Positions 30,815-46,672 of a stretch of DNA of 64,000 nucleotides are shown here, in pieces. This stretch comes from Patescibacteria group bacterium. Its GTDB lineage: Bacteria > Patescibacteriota > Minisyncoccia > Phycocordibacterales > CAIZLB01. Position 1 is the first letter of the stretch. Every line of letters starts with the position of its first letter. The translations under genes and the position numbers were made by a program. Below the pieces are notes generated by a model. That model did not search any database and was not told where the DNA came from. It saw only the letters and a list, made by a program, of their open reading frames with translations. The stretch lies in assembly GCA_040384445.1 (NCBI GenBank), contig JAZKJG010000001.1:71650-135649 (forward strand), in the 5' to 3' direction.

Positions 30815-30886
30815 GGCCCTATCGTCTAACGGTTAGGACGGAGCGTTCTCAATGCTCAAATCAGAGTTCGATTCTCTGTAGGGTCA
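30815..30886 (+). tRNA. tRNA-Glu (anticodon CTC)
   Basis: GGCCCTATCGTCTAACGGTTAGGACGGAGCGTTCTCAATGCTCAAATCAGAGTTCGATTCTCTGTAGGGTCA. The anticodon loop is TTCTCAA. Confidence 0.8.
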
Positions 30887-31309: not shown

Positions 31310-31837
31310 ATGTTTCTATTTATCATGGAAAAAATTTTTGATTTAGTAGCAAAACTACTTTGGATAATTTCTAAAAAAACTTTTAACTTTTTGTCTCCAT
31401 TAATAATTTACCCAAAAAAAACCTTAGTAGGAGATTTTACAAGTATCCAAACGCTGCAAATCATCAATAGAAGCGGGCAAAATTTATATGATATTTATGT
31501 TGCAGGAATGTCTCGTGAAATAAAAGGTGGGTTCGATATAAAAATTGTTTCGAGTAATATCCCTAATGCAAAAACAGTTGAATATACAAAAATAAATACA
31601 AATGCTTTTGTTGTAATAGCTCAAGACCCTAAAACAAAAATACAACTATGGATCTATAGAATTCATCATATGGAACCGAGAGCTAAAATTGAGATTAAAC
31701 TAAAGATAAAAAGTAGTAAACCAGTATATTTTAAAAATCTAGGTTTTTCTTATAAAGAAATTTTTATTAAAGAATGGAGTAATGGGTCGCTAAATATTCC
31801 ATTTACAATAAAAAAACTACCTAATATAAAAGAATAA
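31310..31837 (+). CDS. Hypothetical protein (N-terminal hydrophobic, very AT-rich)
   Basis: ORF only. Confidence 0.35.
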   Translation: MFLFIMEKIFDLVAKLLWIISKKTFNFLSPLIIYPKKTLVGDFTSIQTLQIINRSGQNLYDIYVAGMSREIKGGFDIKIVSSNIPNAKTVEYTKINTNAFVVIAQDPKTKIQLWIYRIHHMEPRAKIEIKLKIKSSKPVYFKNLGFSYKEIFIKEWSNGSLNIPFTIKKLPNIKE

Positions 31838-31841
31838 ATTT

Positions 31842-32216
31842 TTAATTTGAAATTTTTCTCCCCTCCGGTCTAAACTTCCACGACACGACCGTCAACACTG
31901 TTAACAATATCGCAGGCAACATCGTCGTAAACGCATCTCCATTTCCAAAGTGAGAAAACACAGCGCCTGACATACAAAAGAAAAATCCTGCATACGCCCA
32001 CTCCTTAACCAACGGATATTTCGGAACAAGAATCGCAATCGTTCCTAAAATTTTCCATACACCAATTATCATAAGAAAATAAACAGGATACCCAAGTTGT
32101 GTAATAAATTCTACTTCTGTAGGAGTTTGCATTATTTGTATGATTCCACTTGAGACCATTCCAAGTGCAAGCCATACTGTTGAGATCCAATAGATGATTT
32201 TGTTTCGTTTTGACAT
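31842..32216 (-). CDS. DoxX family membrane protein
   Basis: 124 aa with a 4-TM DoxX-like topology (WKILGTIAILVPKYP...AYAGFFF). Confidence 0.55.
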   Translation of the reverse strand: MSKRNKIIYWISTVWLALGMVSSGIIQIMQTPTEVEFITQLGYPVYFLMIIGVWKILGTIAILVPKYPLVKEWAYAGFFFCMSGAVFSHFGNGDAFTTMLPAILLTVLTVVSWKFRPEGRKISN

Positions 32217-32337
32217 GGTTTAATTGTATACCAGAACTATATTTGACCCTAACCCTCTAATCCTGTACTCTAACCCCAGAGTCGAATCATCGACAACGCC
32301 TCGTTTACGGCTCTGTAAACACTTCCTAAACATTCCC

Positions 32338-33021
32338 ATGTCCTTTCCTCCGTATAAAACAAAAACTTCAGAACAGTGGATCAAAGAATACGAAAAAAGA
32401 GATGCACTTTGGATCCATGATGGTAACCCGCGTCGCCCACACGTTAAGCTTCGCAGTGGTGAGCACTCAAACGGATTCTTCAACAGTGAACTTGTGTTAC
32501 AAGACCCGATGTTGATGGATGAAGTCTGTTGCGCAATTTTAACTTCAATTATGGCCATGGGCCAGCATCTTTCAAATATTAAAAGAATCGTTGGTCCTGC
32601 AATGGGTGCAATTACGATTGCACACGATGTTGCCCGTCACGTTACTCTTCGAACGGGTGGTGTTTGTTTTAGGGCTTACACCCAGAAAGCACCGGATGGA
32701 ACTATGATGTTTGAGAGGACTGAAATTGATCCTAAGGATCGCATCATTCTTGTTGAAGATGTGATCACAAAAGGAGGATCGGTTATGAGTACGGCCGCTG
32801 CTGTAGAAAAAGCAGGCGGGATAATTCTTCCTTATGTCGGTGCGATCGTGAACAGGTCAGGGCTTCATGCAGTCGGTGGAAAAGCTATTGTTGCCCTTAT
32901 TACTCATCATATGCCAAAGTGGAGTGCGGAAGAATGCCCACTTTGTGCAGTGGGTTCAGGAGTTGTATCTGATCCCAAGAAAAATGAAAACTGGGCACGA
33001 CTCAATATGCCTTACGATTGA
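32338..33021 (+). CDS. pyrE: Orotate phosphoribosyltransferase-like PRTase. The ORF extends to 32224, but the start is probably MSFPPYK.
   Basis: PRPP-binding motif ILVEDVITKGGSV. The N-terminal LRSGEHSNGFFNSELV resembles OPRT. It is clustered with pyrD and pyrC. Confidence 0.65.
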   Translation: MSFPPYKTKTSEQWIKEYEKRDALWIHDGNPRRPHVKLRSGEHSNGFFNSELVLQDPMLMDEVCCAILTSIMAMGQHLSNIKRIVGPAMGAITIAHDVARHVTLRTGGVCFRAYTQKAPDGTMMFERTEIDPKDRIILVEDVITKGGSVMSTAAAVEKAGGIILPYVGAIVNRSGLHAVGGKAIVALITHHMPKWSAEECPLCAVGSGVVSDPKKNENWARLNMPYD

Positions 33022-33034
33022 TCAATCTCGAATT

Positions 33035-33068
33035 CCCGGCACCTCACAGAGGTGACCGGGTTTTTTAT
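33035..33068 (+). terminator. Terminator hairpin cccggcacctc-aca-gaggtgaccggg plus T6, copy 1 of a near-identical 38-bp repeat
   Basis: Strong GC stem followed by ttttttattt. Essentially the same sequence recurs at 35065-35099. Confidence 0.7.
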
Positions 33069-33147
33069 TTGATTTACCGCCCAAATTCCTGTACTCTTCT
33101 CTCAGGATCTCAGACTTTAACATTCAACAAGAAAGGAAAAAACCAAC

Positions 33148-34014
33148 ATGATATTACTTTCAAACGGTCACGTACTTAAGTATGTAGTAGCAAGCGGTGC
33201 TCTCGCATTTGATGCGAAAGGATGGTGGTGGGAACAACCACTTCGGTGGCGTAGACGCATTAAACCTGAACTCTTCTCAGTAGTGATTAAAACACTTACC
33301 TACGAAGAGACAAAGGGAAATTTGAAAATGTGGAAGCCGTGGGATTGTGTTCGTCTATTAAAAAATGGAGGAGTGCTTAATAAAATCGGTCTGACAAATA
33401 AAGGGATCGAATGGTGGCTCAAAAAAATTGCTCCGAAGATTAATTTCCACGAGCAAGCCGTTATTGTTTCGATCTCTGGATCCCGGGAGCATATCCTCAT
33501 CATGATTAAACAACTGAACCATCTCCCGATCAAAGCAATCGAAATCAATGGATCATGCCCCAATACTGTTAGTGGGGTTACTGATTCTGGTTACGTAATT
33601 GAAACATTCAAGCAAGCTAAAGTTGTCTCAAAGCATCCACTCATTGTAAAAGTGGGAGTTACTCAAGATTACATGGCAATTGCAGAAGGGGTCAGAGGGT
33701 ATGCCGAAGCTATTGCATTAAACAGTGTGCCTTGGCACGTTGTCAATCCAGATAAAAAATCACCATTGGCAAAACTCAAAGGAGCTGGCGGAGGAGGTGT
33801 GTCAGGGAAACCTGCACAAGAATTTAATTGGCCGGCAGCAAAAGAGCTTGCTGAAAAAAATTATCTCCCCGTCATCTGCCCAAGCATCATGGAATACGAA
33901 GATTTGGAAAAAGTCGATGAGCTGGGTGCGAAAGCATACAGCTTCGGAGCTGTCCATGTTCGTACACCATCAAAACCAACCTCAATCGTAGAAAGACACC
34001 AAAATGGAAACTAA
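33148..34014 (+). CDS. pyrD: Dihydroorotate dehydrogenase family protein (class 1-like TIM barrel, catalytic Cys)
   Basis: IEINGSCPNT, GGGGVSGKP and LNKIGLTNKG match DHOD/PF01180 motifs. The N-terminus is atypical and Trp-rich. Confidence 0.65.
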   Translation: MILLSNGHVLKYVVASGALAFDAKGWWWEQPLRWRRRIKPELFSVVIKTLTYEETKGNLKMWKPWDCVRLLKNGGVLNKIGLTNKGIEWWLKKIAPKINFHEQAVIVSISGSREHILIMIKQLNHLPIKAIEINGSCPNTVSGVTDSGYVIETFKQAKVVSKHPLIVKVGVTQDYMAIAEGVRGYAEAIALNSVPWHVVNPDKKSPLAKLKGAGGGGVSGKPAQEFNWPAAKELAEKNYLPVICPSIMEYEDLEKVDELGAKAYSFGAVHVRTPSKPTSIVERHQNGN

Positions 34015-35050
34015 TAGGATTCAAATTAATCGCTGGTTCGATCGACATCTTCATCTTCGTGATGGAGAAATGCTCAAAACAGTGCTTCCTTGTACACTTG
34101 CTCAGCGCCCGACTGGAGCACTTATCATGCCAAACTTGGTTCCTCCGATTACCACCATCGAAAGAGCGGTGGCATACAAGAAGAGAATTCAAGCTCTCAT
34201 TCCAGATGGTTGTGATTTCAACCCTTGTATGTCAGTGTACCTTACCGATAATACAGATCCTGAAGAAGTGAAACGAGGATATGAAGAAGGTGTATGGGTT
34301 GCCGCAAAGCTCTACATGGCAGATATAAATGGTAAGGGTGGGACAACAAATTCAGAAGGTGCAGTAAGAAATTTGCGAAATCTGAATAAGGTTTTTGCAA
34401 CCATGGAAAAAATTGGCATGCCATTACTTGGCCATTTCGAAGTTGCGGAGAAAAACGTCGATCCGTACGATCGTGAAGTAAGGTCATTAAAGCGAGATCT
34501 AAAGCCACTACTGAAATCATTCCCTGAATTACAAGTGGTTGCAGAACATGTGACTGATGGTCGGATGGCAGATTTCGTTGCTGAAGCGAACTATAAAATA
34601 TTCGCAACAGTGACTGCTCATCACTTGCTGTTCAGTCGAAATGCACTTTACGATGGTGGCATGAATCCGATCAATTACTGCAGACCGATCCTTAAGAGGG
34701 AAAAGCATCAGTTAAAACTTCGTAAGTATGTTACCTCAGGCAACCCTCGATTCGGAGCAGGTACAGATTCAGCGCCTCATCCCCGAGAGGAAAAAGAAAA
34801 GTGTTGCGGTTGTGCTGCTGGTGTATTTCCAGTAAATTCAGCCGCACTATATGCAATAGTATTTGATGAAGAGAATAAACATGAGCACATGAATGGCTTC
34901 ATGTCTCAAAATTTTCTCCATCTATATGGCATTCGTCCATCTAAGGAATTCATGACGATTAAGCGCCAACCCTCGATTATTCCAAAAATGGTTGGATCAG
35001 TCCACGTATTCAAGGGTGGAGAAACTCTTGAATGGACAGTAGAAGATTGA
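34004..35050 (+). CDS. pyrC: Dihydroorotase, class II (PyrC-like)
   Basis: DRHLHLRDG (compare E. coli DWHVHLRDG) and GTDSAPH (E. coli FLGTDSAPH). Length is about 348 aa. Confidence 0.75.
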   Translation: METNRIQINRWFDRHLHLRDGEMLKTVLPCTLAQRPTGALIMPNLVPPITTIERAVAYKKRIQALIPDGCDFNPCMSVYLTDNTDPEEVKRGYEEGVWVAAKLYMADINGKGGTTNSEGAVRNLRNLNKVFATMEKIGMPLLGHFEVAEKNVDPYDREVRSLKRDLKPLLKSFPELQVVAEHVTDGRMADFVAEANYKIFATVTAHHLLFSRNALYDGGMNPINYCRPILKREKHQLKLRKYVTSGNPRFGAGTDSAPHPREEKEKCCGCAAGVFPVNSAALYAIVFDEENKHEHMNGFMSQNFLHLYGIRPSKEFMTIKRQPSIIPKMVGSVHVFKGGETLEWTVED

Positions 35051-35064
35051 TATCAAAATTACTC

Positions 35065-35099
35065 CCCGGCACCTCACAGAGGTGACCGGGGTTTTTTAT
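35065..35099. terminator. Terminator hairpin, copy 2 of the 38-bp repeat. It is bidirectional between pyrC and the minus-strand Nudix gene.
   Basis: ccccggcacctcacagaggtgaccgggg plus T6. Nearly identical to 33035-33068. Confidence 0.7.
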
Positions 35100-35611
35100 T
35101 TAAACCCTATCATCTCAAGTGCTTTTCGAACTGGCTCAACCCAACTCGGATCAATTGATGTAAACCATTCAATCTTTGCATTTTCTGCATTAGGTGTAAT
35201 TAGTGTATCCATATCTACTGGAACCTCATACAAATTCCAAATTGAATTCCATGTCGGTCGTTCATTGTGACCAGGATTTATGACACTTAGATTTCCTATA
35301 AAATTAATTGCAACATTTTCAATACTAAGTTCACGTTTCAAATGTCGTTTACAAGCATCTACTGGTAACTCTCCCCAATTTAATCTACCACCTGGAACAA
35401 ACCATTTATGTTGAAATGAGGGTTCAAAACGATATCCTAGTAAAAATTCTTTTGTACCATTATTAATCCGTGTGAGTACGAAATCTGCAGTGGGTACTGG
35501 GAGCCATTTTAAAACTTCATAAAAAATCTCGTCGGGAATTCTTTTTCGATTTGCAACAAATTCAGCAATCTCAGCTTCTGATACAAGATCTGTGTCTGTG
35601 TAAATATTCAT
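35096..35611 (-). CDS. Nudix hydrolase, GDP-mannose mannosyl hydrolase-like (paralog B). The ORF extends to 35752, but the start is probably MNIYTD.
   Basis: WFVPGGRLNWGELPVDACKRHLKRELSI matches the GDPMH/NudD motif (WFVPGGR...E...R...EELG). It is about 55% identical to the adjacent paralog. Confidence 0.7.
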   Translation of the reverse strand: MNIYTDTDLVSEAEIAEFVANRKRIPDEIFYEVLKWLPVPTADFVLTRINNGTKEFLLGYRFEPSFQHKWFVPGGRLNWGELPVDACKRHLKRELSIENVAINFIGNLSVINPGHNERPTWNSIWNLYEVPVDMDTLITPNAENAKIEWFTSIDPSWVEPVRKALEMIGFK

Positions 35612-35673: not shown

Positions 35674-36183
35674 TTATTCCCAGAGGAATCCAAGACTGCG
35701 CAGTGCGTTTTGTACTGGTTCTGGCCACGATGAATCGATGTGGGTGAACCATTCAACCTTCGCATTCTCCTTGTTGGGAGTCACAATGGTATCGAATGGT
35801 ACTGGAACCTCGTAAAGGTGCCAAATCGAGTGCCAAAGAGGACGGTCGTCACTTTCGGGATTAATGACACTAAAGTGACCTTGAAACTCGATGGCAGGAT
35901 ATTGAATCCCAAGCTCCCGTTGGAGGTGCCTGTAGCATGCTTCATCAGGAGTCTCTCCCCAATTGAGTCGTCCACCTGGCACAAACCAAGTGTCTTTGAA
36001 TGGTGCCTCGGTACGGTACCCGAGGAGGAATTCCTTTTTGCCACCCTCATTCTTCCGAGTGAGGATAAAATCGGAGGTCGAAATCGGAACCCATTTGAGT
36101 ACTTCACGAAATACGTCATCGGGGATCCTTTTTCTGTCAAACATCAATTTCTCGATCTCTTCTTTTGTAGGGAAATAATCCAT
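35674..36183 (-). CDS. Nudix hydrolase, GDP-mannose mannosyl hydrolase-like (paralog A)
   Basis: WFVPGGRLNWGETPDEACYRHLQRELGI. It is a tandem duplicate of the downstream gene. Confidence 0.7.
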   Translation of the reverse strand: MDYFPTKEEIEKLMFDRKRIPDDVFREVLKWVPISTSDFILTRKNEGGKKEFLLGYRTEAPFKDTWFVPGGRLNWGETPDEACYRHLQRELGIQYPAIEFQGHFSVINPESDDRPLWHSIWHLYEVPVPFDTIVTPNKENAKVEWFTHIDSSWPEPVQNALRSLGFLWE

Positions 36184-41515: not shown

Positions 41516-42142
41516 ATGTTCAGTCACTATTTTAATATTATCCTGAATTACGCAGAATCAGGATCTTCAGTTCTCGTTGATTATTTATATCCAATTGTTT
41601 TTTTGTCCGCTCTTTCAGAATCCACCCCGATACTTGGTACCTTTACACCGGGAACTCTATTTTTACTTTTCTTTGGATATACCGCTTCTGTAAATGCTAT
41701 TAATCTCGCTCTAGTAGTACTTGTTGCAACACTTGGAGCAATAGTTGGGGATGTGCTTGGATATTTACTTGGTCGTCATGCTACGGGTTGGATGTTACGA
41801 CATAAAAAGATTTTAAAAGAAGCGCATATTGAACAAGGACGTGCATTTTTCAGTAAACATGGAGGGAAGAGTATTTTGATTGGAAGATTCGTTGGTCCGA
41901 TTCGACCTATTGTGCCACTGATTGCTGGAAGTATTGGAATGAGTATGAGAAAGTTTTTGTTCTGGAATATTCTTGGAGCGTTTTTGTGGGCGACATTGTA
42001 TGTCACAATTGGATTTTTCTTTGGCGCGTATGCGAGAGATATTGAAAAAGTTGTGTCTGATACTGGATTAGTGATTTCTGTAATTATTTTTATTGGTGCG
42101 GTTGTGTATTATTTTAAATATATGAAAAACCAGACGAAGTAG
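41516..42142 (+). CDS. DedA family membrane protein
   Basis: DedA/SNARE-associated signature GAIVGDVLGYLLGRH...GRFVGPIRPIVPLIAG. Confidence 0.85.
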   Translation: MFSHYFNIILNYAESGSSVLVDYLYPIVFLSALSESTPILGTFTPGTLFLLFFGYTASVNAINLALVVLVATLGAIVGDVLGYLLGRHATGWMLRHKKILKEAHIEQGRAFFSKHGGKSILIGRFVGPIRPIVPLIAGSIGMSMRKFLFWNILGAFLWATLYVTIGFFFGAYARDIEKVVSDTGLVISVIIFIGAVVYYFKYMKNQTK

Positions 42143-42143
42143 G
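42122..42143 (+). repeat. 22-bp direct repeat, copy 1 (atgaaaaaccagacgaagtagg). It covers the last 6 codons and stop of DedA.
   Basis: An exact second copy lies at 46651-46672, immediately after the stop of the 4.4-kb giant gene. Confidence 0.9.
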
Positions 42144-42211: not shown

Positions 42212-45200
42212 ATGTCTATAAAAAATTTAAAGAAATGCGCATTTATTTTTGTTGGAATAGTGCTTGTGTTTTACGGAGAAAAAACTTTTGCCGCATACCC
42301 ACTTGGTAACGAAGCTGTATTTTATCATTTTGAAGAAGCTGCAACTGCAACATCAACAAACAGTGGAAGTGGTGGTTCTGCATATGATGGAACTTTTGCT
42401 GGAGCAGCAAGTACAACTGCACTTGTTAAGCGTTTTGGTGCGCAAAGTGCATCATTTGGAGAAACAGGTGATTACATGAAAACGTATTTTGCAAGTGGTA
42501 CAAATCCTACTGCACAATCATTATCAGTAAGTATGTGGGTATATAAAAAAGAGGCATCAAATGGCTGTCCTGCTGGTGGTGATGATCATTTTTTCGGATC
42601 TAGTGGACAACCGTCAGGATCACGGTTTTATTTACGATGTACTGGAGGATTTTGGGGTAGTCGTTTTGGAGCAGCTGCAGCTGCAAACTCAACAGTGACT
42701 GGTGTGACACACCAGGGGTGGGACCATATTGTGCTCGTGTTTGATGCAACAAATGACACACCAAAATTATATGTAAACAATGTTCTCAGGGCAACATCAC
42801 CGCTCGTGAGCTCATACACAATCACAAATGCATTTTTTGTCGGAGGTGTGAATGATACCATTACAACTCCAGGTGTCCTCAGTTCATCTGAAAATGCGGG
42901 TGCAAATATTGATGAAGTTGCAATATATACAACAGCACTTTCTTTAAGTGATATTACAACTTTATATAAAGCAGGTGATCTCGTTGCTCCTGTAATTTCG
43001 TCTATTGCAACATCAACCGTTTCTGCAACATCAACAACGATTTCGTGGACTACAGATGAATCTGGATCAACACAGGTTGAATATGGATTAACAGGATCAT
43101 ACGGAAGTCTAACGACAGAAACTGATACAACAACATTTGTGACAAGTCACTCAGCAACATTGTCAGGGTTAGCTGAAAATACGTTATATTATTATCGTGT
43201 TATTTCACGAGACCCAACAGGTGCAACTGCAACTTCATCACAAGGAACATTTACTTCCGGATCAATGACTGCCCCTGGTCAACCTTCTGCATTGAGTGTG
43301 ATTCCTTATGAAGGTAGAGCACATCTTACCTGGACAGCAGCGACCGGTGATCTGACTGACTACTTGGTAGAATACAAATTATCAAGTGATGGTGGATGGA
43401 CCACTTTTACAGATGGTGTATCTATCGCAACTACTACCATGGTTACAGGTTTGGTAAATAATTTCGCATATGATTTTAGAGTCACAGCAAGTAATCAATC
43501 TACTCCAGGCCCAGTATCAAGTACAGTGTCAACAACTCCTGTATATAGAGTGACTTTTGCAGGTTCTACTCCCGCTCACTTGTCTGTGATCACGGGATCA
43601 TCTGTAACAGTATCTGCATCTACTACACTCCCTTCGTTTTCATTTGCTTCAAGTACTCAAACTCTTCGACTAGAAACAGCCGGAGGATCTTTGGTGAGTC
43701 AAGTTTCTACAACTACGCGGTACGGAGATTATAATCTTACGCATCTTATAAATACGCTGGCCGATTCTGATCTTTCACTGGCAGGCAACTCTTCGGGTAT
43801 GGCATACGTTGGAACAACTGATACATTGTTTATAGTGCATAATGCAGCGGTTGGCTCAAATTCAACAATTGATGAAGTTGATAAAAATGGAACGCTCATT
43901 CGATCAATTACATGTACACTGTGTGGGGACATTGAAAGTATCGTATTGCTATCATCTGTTGCTTCAACAACCGCTGGTGGGTTTGATCATACGTTCATGA
44001 TTGGAACTGAAAATAATACATCGAGCGCTGAAATATTTAGAGTAGTTATTTATTCAACAGGAACAACTGCAGTTAATCGTTTAGATTATTTTAATATAGG
44101 AGTCTCGCACGCTGCAAACGGAGGACTTGAGGGTATTGCATATAATTCAACATCAGGAGTGTTCTATGTTGCTCGAGAACTTACGACACCTGCGTTATAT
44201 GAAGTAACACTGGGTGCAGGGCATGCTGCATCTGCGGTTCAAATATGTTCAAACTTGACACTCGGAGCTACAATTAGTGATTTCTCTGACCTTTCATTTA
44301 AAAATAATATTTTGTATGCCTTAAGTGAGAATACAAATCCAAGTAAGCTGGTGCCGATAAATATTACGAGCACAAGTACATGTACACTTGTTGACAGTAA
44401 TGAAAATGGGACTGCAAGTAGTAGTGATACAGGAGACTGGTTAACTTCAGTTCCTGTAGGAGTTACTGATCAAGCAGAGGGTGTGGTATGGGATGCTACA
44501 GGAGATGTTTTGTATGTTTTAGGTGAAGCTGATTTTTTAGCAAAATATAGAACTACTGCATTTAATGCTCAACACACATTTACAGGATTAGCAGACGGAA
44601 ACTATGTTTTAAAAGCATCCTTTACTGATACGAATGGAATCACATCATCATCAACAGATAGATTATTTACAATTAGTAATGATAGTATTTCACCTGTAAT
44701 TTCATCTATTGCGTCATCATCTATCACATCAACATCAGCTACTCTAACTTGGGGGACAAATGAATCAACCGTTTCTTCTGTGTCTTATGGAACAACAACT
44801 GGTTACGGTATGACGGCTACGTCATCTGCAACATCCACGCATCAAGTCTTGTTAACAGGTTTGGTACCGGAAACAGCATATCATTTTAGAGTATTTGCTG
44901 CAGATCAATCTTCAAACACTTCGCTCTCAGCTGATTATACGTTTACAACATCTGTAGCTCCAGATGTAACTGCTCCAAGTATTTCTAATATTGCATCAAG
45001 CACGACCGATACAAGCGTAACAATTGCATGGACAACTGATGAAAACTCAGACAGTCAGGTTGAGTACGGATTAACATCTTCATATACTTCGTCTTCAACT
45101 CTTGATACCAATGCAACAACTTCACACTCAGTTGTAATCACGAGTTTAGCACCAGCTACCGTGTACCATTTTAGAATCATATCAAAGGATACAGCACTTA

Positions 45201-46648
45201 ACCTTGCAACAACATCTGATTATAACGTGACAACATCTGCTGACAGTGTTGCTCCTGTTATTTCTTTACCTTCTGCTTCAATCAATTCTGGAACATCTGC
45301 AATTATTTCTTGGAATACAAATGAGAATGCAACAAGCTTGGTAAGATATGGTTTGACGGCAACATACACAGCAACAACAAGTTTAGGCGTTGCAACAACG
45401 GCAACACATAGTGTAAGTTTGTCTGATTTGAAAGCGTGTACACAATATCATTATCAGATTTTAACAACCGACGCCGTGGGAAATAGTTCGACTACAACGG
45501 ACTCTCTGTTTACAACATCTGGCTGTGCAGGAGGTACTTCGGTTCAGGAGGTCAATACTGTTGCAATAAGTAATTCAACTGGAGATATAGCAACGACTAC
45601 ATCAGCGTCGACAGGTAATACTGTTGTCTTGGATATTCCTGCAGGATACTCAACTTCATCAAGTGTTATTTTTCAGATCAAACAAGTTGAGGATCTTGCT
45701 GTGATTTCTGGAACAGGCGGGGTGAGTGGTAAGAGTATTGTAGGAGATCAGATGTATGATCTACAGGCGTATCTGAATGCCTCAACAAGTATGACTGCAT
45801 TTAATGCAACTCTTACAATCAATATGAGTTACCGAACTATTGATGCGTCTGGATATGACGAGTCATCATTTAAGATATATAGATATGATGGGGTATCGTG
45901 GACTGAATTGCCAAGCTGTGTAGTTGATGTAACACAGAACACGGTAACATGTGAGACTACTTATTTTTCAACTTTTGGATTGTTTGGAATACCAAACTCT
46001 GTAGTGGCCCCGACGGTAATCAACTCTTCAACAGGGGGTAGTGGTGTAATGTATTCGCATGTTGCTCAAAATTTGCCAACATTAACAAGTACAACCTCAA
46101 CAAGATATGTTTTCATAAGAGATTTAAAGGTGGGAAGTGTAGGAGATGATGTTCGGTTGTTGCAACAATTTCTAAACAATAGCGGATATATCGTTGCAAA
46201 AGTTGGGGTACCAGGATCATCAGGAAAAGAAACAAATGTATTTGGAAGTGCAACAAAAGCTGCCCTTATGCGATTTCAATTTTCACAGATAGGGATTAAT
46301 AGAAATGGTGTGGTTGATGTTAAAACAAGAGCCATATTGAACACTGGAGTGTTTGCATGGACTCCTATAAGTACGTCTGGAACATCTCAATTTGTGAAAA
46401 CATTATCTTTTGGTAATGTATCGTCTGATGTAAAAAGATTGCAACAATTCCTAAACTCAAGTGGGTATACAGTTTCTGCTTTTGGAGCAGGATCTGTTGG
46501 CAAAGAGACTACGTTGTTTGGATCTGCAACTCGAGCTGCTGTTATTAAATTTCAGTTAACTAATGGACTTGTGCAGACCGCTAAAGATAAGGAGTATGGA
46601 AAATTTGGTCCTCAAACAATATTGAAAATAAATGAATTGATAAAGTAG
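42212..46648 (+). CDS. Giant secreted, cell-wall-associated protein: signal peptide, LamG/ConA-like lectin domain, 2x FN3, a beta-propeller-like central region, 3x FN3, then 2x peptidoglycan-binding (PG_binding_1) domains
   Basis: Signal peptide MSIKNLKKCAFIFVGIVLVFYGEKTFA. A LamG-like block is at aa 30-240. The FN3 repeats follow the pattern PVISSIA...ISWTT.E...QVEYGLT..Y.......T.HS..L..L...T.Y.YR. The C-terminal pair of LQQFLN..GY......G..GKET..FGSAT.AA...FQ PG-binding motifs is clear. Confidence 0.85.
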   Translation: MSIKNLKKCAFIFVGIVLVFYGEKTFAAYPLGNEAVFYHFEEAATATSTNSGSGGSAYDGTFAGAASTTALVKRFGAQSASFGETGDYMKTYFASGTNPTAQSLSVSMWVYKKEASNGCPAGGDDHFFGSSGQPSGSRFYLRCTGGFWGSRFGAAAAANSTVTGVTHQGWDHIVLVFDATNDTPKLYVNNVLRATSPLVSSYTITNAFFVGGVNDTITTPGVLSSSENAGANIDEVAIYTTALSLSDITTLYKAGDLVAPVISSIATSTVSATSTTISWTTDESGSTQVEYGLTGSYGSLTTETDTTTFVTSHSATLSGLAENTLYYYRVISRDPTGATATSSQGTFTSGSMTAPGQPSALSVIPYEGRAHLTWTAATGDLTDYLVEYKLSSDGGWTTFTDGVSIATTTMVTGLVNNFAYDFRVTASNQSTPGPVSSTVSTTPVYRVTFAGSTPAHLSVITGSSVTVSASTTLPSFSFASSTQTLRLETAGGSLVSQVSTTTRYGDYNLTHLINTLADSDLSLAGNSSGMAYVGTTDTLFIVHNAAVGSNSTIDEVDKNGTLIRSITCTLCGDIESIVLLSSVASTTAGGFDHTFMIGTENNTSSAEIFRVVIYSTGTTAVNRLDYFNIGVSHAANGGLEGIAYNSTSGVFYVARELTTPALYEVTLGAGHAASAVQICSNLTLGATISDFSDLSFKNNILYALSENTNPSKLVPINITSTSTCTLVDSNENGTASSSDTGDWLTSVPVGVTDQAEGVVWDATGDVLYVLGEADFLAKYRTTAFNAQHTFTGLADGNYVLKASFTDTNGITSSSTDRLFTISNDSISPVISSIASSSITSTSATLTWGTNESTVSSVSYGTTTGYGMTATSSATSTHQVLLTGLVPETAYHFRVFAADQSSNTSLSADYTFTTSVAPDVTAPSISNIASSTTDTSVTIAWTTDENSDSQVEYGLTSSYTSSSTLDTNATTSHSVVITSLAPATVYHFRIISKDTALNLATTSDYNVTTSADSVAPVISLPSASINSGTSAIISWNTNENATSLVRYGLTATYTATTSLGVATTATHSVSLSDLKACTQYHYQILTTDAVGNSSTTTDSLFTTSGCAGGTSVQEVNTVAISNSTGDIATTTSASTGNTVVLDIPAGYSTSSSVIFQIKQVEDLAVISGTGGVSGKSIVGDQMYDLQAYLNASTSMTAFNATLTINMSYRTIDASGYDESSFKIYRYDGVSWTELPSCVVDVTQNTVTCETTYFSTFGLFGIPNSVVAPTVINSSTGGSGVMYSHVAQNLPTLTSTTSTRYVFIRDLKVGSVGDDVRLLQQFLNNSGYIVAKVGVPGSSGKETNVFGSATKAALMRFQFSQIGINRNGVVDVKTRAILNTGVFAWTPISTSGTSQFVKTLSFGNVSSDVKRLQQFLNSSGYTVSAFGAGSVGKETTLFGSATRAAVIKFQLTNGLVQTAKDKEYGKFGPQTILKINELIK

Positions 46649-46650
46649 TT

Positions 46651-46672
46651 ATGAAAAACCAGACGAAGTAGG
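46651..46672 (+). repeat. 22-bp direct repeat, copy 2. It is embedded in a hairpin, ccagacgaagtag-ggtcgaa-ctacttgtctgg.
   Basis: Identical to 42122-42143, and forms a stem-loop across 46659-46690. Confidence 0.9.

Follow-up and report, generated by a model that had tools for sequence, protein, structure and literature searches.

Are three consecutive pyrimidine biosynthesis genes in a Patescibacteria group bacterium, two of which lie between identical hairpins, a foreign acquisition or a native part of the lineage? We addressed this question for a 64,000 nt stretch of its genome (GenBank assembly GCA_040384445.1, contig JAZKJG010000001.1, positions 71,650 to 135,649 of the forward strand), called the window below. 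Patescibacteria are generally reported to be without de novo nucleotide synthesis (PMC9530719, PMC11809585, PMC11665869, PMC12455944); purine and pyrimidine biosynthesis genes have been noted in two species (PMC12239599). An earlier note on this DNA correctly placed the host in the Candidate Phyla Radiation (CPR), of which the Patescibacteria are members, and proposed that the genes are unexpected there and were acquired horizontally. Our analysis leads to a different answer, which we hold with good but not full confidence: the three genes form a native pyrimidine module of two transcription units, the hairpins are terminators, the locus was reshaped by recombination within the lineage, and the first gene is preceded by a conserved, probably regulatory leader RNA.

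The three genes are encoded on the forward strand in the order PRT-A, which encodes an orotate phosphoribosyltransferase (OPRT)-like phosphoribosyltransferase (PRT), a gene of the dihydroorotate dehydrogenase (DHOD) family, and pyrC for a class II dihydroorotase. These identities, already given in the earlier note, were confirmed by profile, structure and motif matches. The features of the locus are:

32243-32271, + strand: putative sigma-70-type promoter of PRT-A, as judged from the sequence (TTGACC at 32243-32248, 17-nt spacer, TACTCT at 32266-32271)
32276-32340, + strand: pyr-leader RNA motif, hairpin P1 plus H-type pseudoknot, covariance-model hit
32338-33021, + strand: PRT-A, divergent OPRT-like type I phosphoribosyltransferase, putative PyrE, 227 aa
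33035-33070, + strand: H1, predicted intrinsic terminator of PRT-A; 11-bp stem with one bulged A, ACA loop, T6ATTT; −22.8 kcal/mol, z −5.7
33069-33097, + strand: putative DHOD-PyrC promoter (TTGATT, 17-nt spacer, TACTCT)
33098-33147, + strand: DHOD leader, unstructured (fold energy −0.5 kcal/mol), with AACATT box (33119-33124) and Shine-Dalgarno sequence GAAAGGA (33131-33137)
33148-34014, + strand: DHOD-like flavoenzyme, Patescibacteria-type, putative PyrD, 288 aa
34004-35050, + strand: PyrC, class II (E. coli-type, homodimeric) dihydroorotase, 348 aa
35064-35101, + strand: H2, predicted intrinsic terminator of DHOD-PyrC; 12-bp stem consisting of the H1 core and one extra C-G pair; −22.6 kcal/mol, z −5.5

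The start codon of PRT-A is the ATG at 32338 in both the NCBI and the Logan gene calls (227-aa protein); the start at 32224 assumed earlier belongs to an over-extended TTG open reading frame (ORF) that runs through the 5′ leader. The pyrC start overlaps the stop of the DHOD gene by 11 nt, which is typical of translational coupling. PRT-A and DHOD-PyrC would each be driven by a promoter of its own, both built alike (TTGAyy, 17-nt spacer, TACTCT). The layout of the PRT-A promoter is kept at the nucleotide level in the orthologous leaders of L091 and L215 (loci from other sequences carry L numbers here) and in most other leaders; it was not among the results of a generic promoter scan. Both promoters contain the 11-mer TCCTGTACTCT, and the DHOD promoter region 33083-33100 matches the PRT-A promoter region 32257-32274 in 14 of 18 nt, this 11-mer included. 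As an operator TCCTGTACTCT was rejected, since two matches with at most one mismatch are not significant alone (22/100 shuffles); a more plausible reading is that it forms the −10 region in each of two similar promoters. The first unit would then consist of promoter, structured 5′ leader, PRT-A (orotate to orotidine monophosphate, OMP) and H1, and the second of promoter, short unstructured leader, the DHOD-like gene coupled to PyrC (carbamoyl-aspartate to dihydroorotate to orotate) and H2. Together the enzymes of the module would convert carbamoyl-aspartate to OMP, and the genome would run the full pathway or start from an imported intermediate.

The two hairpins share the 26-mer CCCGGCACCTCACAGAGGTGACCGGG, which has exactly two copies in the 64 kb, at 33035-33060 and 35065-35090 (0/100 shuffles matched), and they bracket DHOD-PyrC exactly, as had been noticed before. 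H1 starts 13 nt past the PRT-A stop and H2 14 nt past the PyrC stop, and each is followed by T6ATTT. Both show a GC-rich stem-loop followed by U6-7 downstream of a stop, as Rho-independent terminators do, and we infer that they are ordinary members of this class, with termination of the transcript predicted at both; they would end the two transcription units. The T-tail of H1 overlaps the −35 element of the DHOD-PyrC promoter. H2 is located between convergent genes, also folds on the minus strand (−23.0 kcal/mol) and probably serves the convergent NUDIX gene too. The window contains about 15 other terminators of the hairpin and T-run type, many with the tail TTTTTTATT. Their stems are each unique, whereas H1 and H2 have, unlike usual terminators, an identical stem in two copies 2 kb apart. 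With two copies in 64 kb there is no sign of a genome-wide family comparable to REP (repetitive extragenic palindromic)-like repeated palindromes, and the exact 26-mer had 0 matches in a species-representative genome collection that does not include this genome.

Homologous hairpins were found at the corresponding positions in three relatives of ~70% identity: ttttactCCCCGGCATCCCTAAAAAGGTGACCGGGTTTTT is located 3′ of pyrC in L090, aaaattactCCCCCCGGCACCTTAAAAATGTGACCGGGGTTTT 3′ of PRT-A in L091 (PRT-A 61% identical) and aatactCCCCGGCACCTCTAGCAAAGGTGACCGGGTATTTTTATTT 3′ of PRT-A in L215 (PRT-A 55% identical). This suggests that both genes already carried H-type terminators in the ancestor of the clade, from which H1 and H2 would descend. 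Terminator pairs were also seen elsewhere: near-identical copies of CCCCGGCAyTCTTTyAAGAGTGACCGGGGTTTT lie 370-470 nt apart in metagenome contigs with a GC of ~0.40 (L142, 1595 and 2062; L196, 522 and 896; L131, 1134 and 1524); short genes flanked by duplicated terminators may occur repeatedly.

The inner stem and the loop of the H-type hairpins have drifted between genomes, and the two copies within this genome are identical, which points to recent recombination. The gene order at the locus differs between relatives. In the window it is DoxX(−)-PRT-A-H1-DHOD-PyrC-H2-NUDIX(−)-NUDIX(−)-HisK(−). L090 has the order DHOD-PyrC-H-APH-DoxX(−)...HisK(−), with the block on the other side of DoxX than in the window, and L215 has DoxX(−)-PrgI-AAA(−)-PRT-A-H-HisK(−) with no DHOD-PyrC after PRT-A. 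L006, from a sister sample, is a mosaic in comparison with the window, with 96-100% identity over 33065-33237, 70-80% over 33238-33777 and 98-100% across the greater part of pyrC. In L006 the same DHOD promoter is preceded by a gene of a second OPRT-like family, PRT-B, by pyrF and by a different terminator stem, ACCCACGCACCAATTGGTGCGTGGGT, with the T-tail as the breakpoint. The L006 scaffold contains N gaps, but another assembly, L007, is in agreement with it throughout the part that L007 spans.

The identity of H1 and H2 therefore most likely stems from an event within the lineage, either relocation of the block behind PRT-A and its hairpin, which is the simplest reading, or gene conversion between copies 2 kb apart. 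That these two are indistinguishable from the present data weighs against a detailed account of the event. For the relocation, a block consisting of promoter, DHOD, PyrC and H would have changed its place or come in from a related strain, and recombination would have inserted it at the homologous H of PRT-A, leaving H on both sides; we give this version somewhat less than an even chance. It would explain why PRT-A-H stands directly before HisK without DHOD-PyrC in L215, why DHOD-PyrC-H lies beyond DoxX in L090, and why L006 has another cassette and another hairpin at the junction with the breakpoint at the T-tail; it also fits a pyrC that is 98-100% identical between sequences otherwise 70-80% identical, and hairpin copies that are exact within the genome and diverged between genomes. 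However, the relatives are represented by short contigs only, which do not give the ancestral order, the sequences between stop and hairpin differ between H1 and H2 so that ~36 nt are shared, and gene conversion of pre-existing copies explains the identity equally well. A tandem duplication with microhomology deletion at the shared GATTGA stop context was rejected, because the spacers between stop and hairpin differ. Of the horizontal acquisition proposed earlier, a narrower sense survives: the locus is plastic within its lineage, as the arrangements in L090, L215 and L006 show, but the module is not foreign.

The leader of PRT-A is predicted to fold into P1 and a compact H-type pseudoknot, followed by an AACAUU box that abuts the start codon. 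The window copy contains CCAGAG, P1 (GTCGA/TCGAC, 32281-32285 with 32290-32294), a 6-bp P2 (GTTTAC/GTAAAC, 32303-32308 with 32315-32320) and a pseudoknot in which GCC (32298-32300) pairs with GGC (32309-32311) in the P2 loop; the box AACATTCCC (32329-32337) abuts the ATG, with the AACAUUCCC box at the AUG. The consensus from 5′ to 3′ is promoter, YAGAG, P1 (5-6 bp), AAGCC, P2 5′ arm, a loop opening with GGCUU, P2 3′ arm, CAUUUG, AACAUUGAAA, Shine-Dalgarno sequence and ATG. Nucleotide-level conservation of the PRT-A leader extends to L091 and L215, where compensatory changes are seen, for instance GCT/AGC in the L091 pseudoknot for GCC/GGC in the window, and further copies are located before PRT-A, PRT-B and DHOD-like genes. 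In the PRT-type leaders of other genomes the box runs into a GAAAGG Shine-Dalgarno sequence; in the DHOD-type leaders GGAGG follows 12-15 nt further on.

A covariance model built from 23 leader copies was used to search 1.4 Mb on both strands (E ≤ 1). All 36 matches are on the strand of the gene and ~20-110 nt upstream of pyrD-like or pyrE-like starts; 13 of them were outside the training set, and a second round converged to the same set. The negative control, 0.58 Mb of unrelated contigs, reached a top score of 14.5 bits. With filters off, the sole match in the window is at 32292-32340 (32.3 bits, E 3.7e-5), the next best scoring 13.8 bits. The covariance-model search found no match to the leader motif in alphaproteobacterial DHOD loci, and the window's own DHOD leader was without a match as well: it has lost P1 and the pseudoknot and kept the AACATT box, which hints that the regulation of DHOD-PyrC was remodelled in this clade. 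Compensatory changes occur in all three helices (P1, P2 and pseudoknot), as the following alignments show (fractions paired are inflated by the way the alignments were fitted, see below):

A4, hand-aligned, P2 and pseudoknot: 93% paired, double changes in 7/11 pairs, covariation 0.518 versus 0.201 ± 0.036 in shuffles (0/500), slid controls ≤0.11
A6, model-made with some rows out of register, P2 and pseudoknot: 76% paired, double changes in 6/10 pairs, covariation 0.247 versus 0.128 ± 0.016 (0/500), slid controls ≤0.134
A7, script-picked hairpins, P1: 100% paired by construction and without weight, double changes in 6/6 pairs, covariation 0.592 versus 0.315 ± 0.027 (0/500), slid controls ≤0.108

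Several observations count against a regulatory RNA fold at this place. The alignments for pair counting were fitted by hand (the N-padded A4 and A7) or by a script requiring pairing, and the fraction of paired positions is inflated in consequence. When the leaders were folded by nearest-neighbour energies, which leave out pseudoknots, they were not significantly better than shuffles (z −2.1, −0.4 and −1.0); such a weak signal is what would be expected for a pseudoknot, but it yields no independent support. The copy in the window is among the weakest matches (27.6-32.3 bits), its pseudoknot has only 3 bp, and only about a third of the DHOD loci showed the motif upstream of that gene. Some approaches to the leader were discarded. 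MAFFT alignments (A2, A3, A5) had several stems out of register and were replaced by the hand alignment for pair counting. A loose structural descriptor was non-specific (1022 and then 186 matches versus 1416 and 230 on control strands) and informative only upstream of pyr genes, so that the covariance model was used instead. A pairing of the P1 loop with the AACAUUGAAA box is present in some sequences but inconsistent, and was dropped.

What might this leader do? As a conserved and structured 5′ element with covariation, located upstream of pyrD-like or pyrE-like genes in 36/36 cases, it has the generic properties of a riboswitch and is a candidate pyrimidine-pathway riboswitch. To our knowledge, there is no validated riboswitch class for pyrimidine nucleotides or their precursors. 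In many bacteria pyrimidine genes are controlled by the RNA-binding protein PyrR, and several validated riboswitch classes, preQ1-I and SAM-II among them, typically contain compact H-type pseudoknots. The leader resembles the PyrR-binding RNA (RF00515) as a cis-acting structured 5′ leader before pyrimidine biosynthesis genes, and preQ1-I and SAM-II riboswitches in its small H-type pseudoknot near the ribosome-binding region. It differs from these known RNAs in having no downstream terminator/antiterminator and in its consensus YAGAG-P1-AAGCC-P2(GGCUU loop)-AACAUUGAAA. None of the 4227 Rfam 15 models matched, the PyrR site RF00515 giving no hit even at E ≤ 10 in 31800-35400 of the window or in L024 9850-10030, and the identification of the leader as a PyrR site or another known RNA was rejected on these grounds. 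A full-text literature search found no description of such a pyr-leader element, nor of the DHOD-like family in CPR.

Most likely, the leader would adjust how accessible the PRT-A start is to ribosomes according to a signal of the pyrimidine pathway, which could be a small ligand or a protein. A protein-binding operator (PyrR-like or autoregulatory), or an element acting through RNA stability alone, is a serious possibility, although we would put it below an even chance. The aptamer-like core is small (~30 nt for pseudoknot and P1), the single-stranded boxes YAGAG and AACAUUGAAA are conserved, and the widespread control by PyrR makes such an operator easy to conceive; yet the PyrR RNA model found nothing, no conserved regulator gene was seen beside the clusters, and the pseudoknot is of the type known from preQ1-I and SAM-II. 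Tentatively, and with doubt prevailing, the leader might represent a new riboswitch class that senses a metabolite of the pyrimidine pathway (UMP, that is, uridine monophosphate, UTP, CTP, orotate, dihydroorotate or phosphoribosyl pyrophosphate, PRPP) and gates translation initiation.

The hairpins could also be more than terminators. A sequence-specific 3′ element of pyr transcripts, bound by a regulator or active in stability and kept identical by selection, would agree with the fact that all five H-type hairpins (from four genomes) follow PRT-A or PyrC and 0 of ~85 other genes there, and with an outer stem (CCCGGCA/TGACCGGG) and a bulged A that are conserved next to a variable inner stem and loop. 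This conservation is, however, about that of orthologous DNA at ~70% identity, and there is no match to an Rfam family. In addition, a relaxed hairpin pattern had more than 120 matches in unrelated metagenome contigs of all GC backgrounds, none of them near pyr genes, which shows that the shape of the H stem is generic and gives no sign of a specific repeat family. We consider such an element unlikely and retain the terminator reading.

The identification of PyrC as a class II dihydroorotase is unambiguous. It scores 329.8 bits against the curated equivalog model TIGR00856 (cut-off 292.95), covering model positions 2-340 of 341, and aligns over its full length with the homodimeric E. coli enzyme (PDB 1XGE/1J79; 1xge, E 1e-86; ~50% identity). 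The motifs HLHLRDG, AAKLY, LLGHFE, AEHVT and GTDSAPH align with 1xge, and the ligands of the binuclear zinc site and the carbamylated lysine are present. There is no notable difference from the E. coli-type class; special here are the Patescibacterium host and the translational coupling to a divergent DHOD.

The DHOD-like protein has the TIM barrel of the DHO_dh family (Pfam PF01180, 51.2 bits, cut-off 27). Its AlphaFold2 model (pLDDT 85.5, pTM 0.88) has its closest folds among class 1B and then class 1A DHODs (TM ~0.75, range 0.70-0.78; 20-23% identity). In an alignment of 31 family members K48, N78, G81, L82, N84, N134, S136, C137, P138, K168, N192 and GGxSG are invariant, and with them the orotate loop NxxGLxNxG, the catalytic Cys in SCPN and the lysines that contact flavin mononucleotide (FMN); these were also aligned to 1ep1_A. 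The barrel, the SCPN Cys, the orotate loop and the FMN Lys are shared with class 1 DHODs (the PyrD subunit of L. lactis DHODB, 1EP1/5UE9, and the class 1A enzymes of trypanosomatids and L. lactis, DHODA). The family differs from them in a Trp-rich N-terminal region, in GPSIM in place of GGI, in the low identity, and in being found almost only in Patescibacteria and one alphaproteobacterial clade. No PyrK-like (FAD and 2Fe-2S) gene is present beside the DHOD-like gene in the window or in the loci of 70 relatives. The family is compact (about 150-300 clusters overall), with 144 clusters (50% identity) at E ≤ 1e-30 and 932 matches at E ≤ 1e-3 among 1.84 billion representatives.

PRT-A has the OPRT 4paw_A as its best and only convincing relative in the PDB (E 6e-14), and its PRPP motif VEDVITKGGS aligns with the loop of 4paw_A. 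The best-matching family is the Thermus-type OPRT (TIGR01367 pyrE_Therm; PDB 4PAW), with which it shares the PRPP loop and, in relatives, the pairing with pyrF. It differs from this type in its lower score (95.4 bits, cut-off 150.25) and in being replaced in other genomes by the distantly related PRT-B. The score against TIGR00336 is 56.6 (cut-off 106.8), and the one against Pfam PF00156 is borderline (26.1 bits, cut-off 26.3). PRT-B proteins are ~250 aa long, 23% identical to PRT-A and score 30 bits with pyrE_Therm (examples are L006 1-1000; L002 8137-8898; L030 2835-; L074 2422-). In other Patescibacteria PRT-B occupies the position of PRT-A in the cluster, pyrF always comes directly after it, and the same leader motif lies upstream; PRT-A and PRT-B look like alternative, exchangeable pyrE cassettes.

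For the assignment of these two proteins to UMP synthesis, the following points are unfavourable. Both stay under the curated equivalog cut-offs, and their predicted activities derive from motif conservation and gene neighbourhood. The DHOD-like protein is far under all NCBIfam DHOD cut-offs (best NF005574, 79.4 versus 269; TIGR01037, 55.9 versus 270) and was therefore filed as a divergent subfamily of the DHOD family, not as a class 1A or 1B member. It has GPSIM where the FMN-phosphate motif is canonically GGI, a partner that could serve as electron acceptor is not evident, and pyrF, pyrB and carAB are absent from the 64-kb window. It would accord with these scores and absences if the DHOD-family protein and the PRT had been repurposed outside UMP synthesis, for example for pyrimidine degradation of the dihydropyrimidine dehydrogenase (DPD) type, which the earlier note had offered as an alternative, or for salvage; DPD also turns up among the fold matches, and most reports deny Patescibacteria de novo nucleotide synthesis (PMC9530719, PMC11809585, PMC11665869). 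But DPD ranks lower than the DHODs, which are the best fold matches, the class 1 signatures N-x-x-G-L-x-N-x-G and SCPN with the catalytic Cys are invariant, the DHOD-like gene occurs across relatives in close linkage with bona fide PyrC, PyrF and PyrB (and with pyrE-type genes), and PRT genes occur as PRT-pyrF pairs. Repurposing is thus quite improbable.

Linkage to the UMP pathway and to the lineage is seen throughout the relatives. PyrC follows immediately 3′ of the DHOD-like gene in 49/70 Patescibacteria loci, and the three genes are nothing unusual in these ultra-small bacteria. In ~15 loci PRT-A or PRT-B together with a bona fide pyrF (TIGR01740 above cut-off) is located adjacent, L037 has an adjacent bona fide pyrB (TIGR00670 above cut-off), and in L056, L065, L070, L077 and L212 PRT-A adjoins pyrF and/or DHOD-PyrC. 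L090 (~70% identical in nucleotides; PyrC 68%) keeps DHOD-PyrC-hairpin and the downstream HisK/AHSA1/S30AE block. Most homologue matches of all three proteins come without a source name, and statements on lineage cover the named ones. These are Patescibacteria for all of the named homologues of the DHOD-like protein (866 homologues in total, ~55% identity) and of PRT-A (45-61% identity) and for the best named matches of PyrC (57-68% identity), and they include Taylor-, Kaiser-, Vogel-, Staskawicz- and Zambryskibacteria, Paceibacterota and Parcubacteria.

The elevated GC described in the earlier note is real but modest: the three genes have a GC of 0.43-0.45 compared to a window gene mean of 0.385 ± 0.037 (z 1.1-1.7), and four other genes in the window equal or exceed them. 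The GC at third codon positions (GC3; z 0.6-1.0) and the synonymous-codon distance (0.18-0.21, mean 0.183) are not anomalous either. The strongest compositional outlier near the module is the ORF 31310-31837 (175 aa, no family match, GC 0.26, z −3.3), which accounts for part of the visual GC step at 32.2 kb. Neither an integrase nor a transposase is present between 31.3 and 36.2 kb, and three unrelated genes lie between the tRNA-Glu at 30815 and the module, leaving no adjacent tRNA attachment site. Composition and best matches, the two places where the earlier note had suggested looking for a foreign signature, gave none; within-lineage best matches and conserved synteny, which it had named as speaking against its proposal, were both found for the genes.

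An acquired island of non-CPR origin, whose insertion boundaries would be the 38-bp hairpins, is thereby largely refuted and very improbable, because the modestly raised GC, the exact repeats on both sides of DHOD-PyrC, a PyrC ~50% identical to that of E. coli (an ancient inter-phylum origin of the class II enzyme is possible) and a DHOD-like family that itself crossed phyla (it is present in Lichenihabitans) stand against best named matches in Patescibacteria for all three proteins, a gene pair kept in most of the Patescibacteria loci, a neighbourhood and hairpin conserved in the ~70%-identity relative, GC, GC3 and codon usage inside the range of the window, and repeats that are terminators with homologues after the same genes in relatives. 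The foreign origin is not supported, and on present sequence comparisons the three genes appear native and typical of the lineage of Patescibacteria (Paceibacteria-like).

The DHOD-like family was also found in ~19 loci labelled Lichenihabitans, Lichenibacterium or other Alphaproteobacteria, plus one labelled Janthinobacterium, with 47-55% identity (L014-L016, L021, L029, L031, L035, L039, L041, L043, L045-L047, L049, L050, L057, L059, L075, L076). The carriers include the cultured L. minor and L. ramalinae, and the clusters contain pyrF (subtype 2), a PRT-B-like gene, pyrB and an NDH2-like flavoprotein gene. In a midpoint-rooted neighbour-joining tree the alphaproteobacterial sequences form one clade inside the Patescibacteria diversity, which suggests a single inter-phylum transfer of the family, in either direction.

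Two further observations concern neighbouring regions of the window. The tandem NUDIX paralogues at 35096-35611 and 35674-36183 (− strand), which are GDP-mannose mannosyl hydrolase-like, contrast in composition (one with GC 0.35 and GC3 0.20, the other with GC 0.475 and GC3 0.49), and neither gene is present at the corresponding position in L090 and L215; one of the two may have arrived recently. A gene for a 1478-aa surface protein (42212-46648) is bracketed by two exact direct copies of the 23-nt sequence TATGAAAAACCAGACGAAGTAGG, at 42121-42143 and 46650-46672. The first copy is the 3′ end of a VTT-domain gene and the second the 5′ half of the terminator hairpin CCAGACGAAGTAGGgtcgaaCTACTTGTCTGG, as if insertion of the giant gene had separated the VTT gene from its terminator, with duplication of 23 nt.

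With the foreign-island interpretation removed, at least the middle steps of UMP synthesis appear as a conserved, vertically maintained trait of many Paceibacteria-like Patescibacteria. NCBI labels for the DHOD-like and some PRT proteins are 'hypothetical' or 'phosphoribosyltransferase family protein', and since both families stay under annotation cut-offs, automated reconstructions would tend to call the pathway incomplete; we infer that reconstructions from current labels would score the UMP route in this way. The locus also illustrates how recombination in natural populations of Patescibacteria exchanges cassettes (PRT-A versus PRT-B-pyrF) with terminators as the boundaries. What remains of interest is the pyr-leader pseudoknot RNA, which is uncatalogued, together with the divergent families of DHOD and OPRT-like proteins. 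The leader is a concrete, testable candidate for a pyrimidine-responsive RNA, being short, with ~35 natural variants that carry compensatory changes and an unambiguous gene association. If it does represent a riboswitch class, a functional UMP pathway would be under regulation in reduced CPR genomes, a partly non-canonical one that relies on a divergent DHOD and on two OPRT-like families overlooked by standard annotation.

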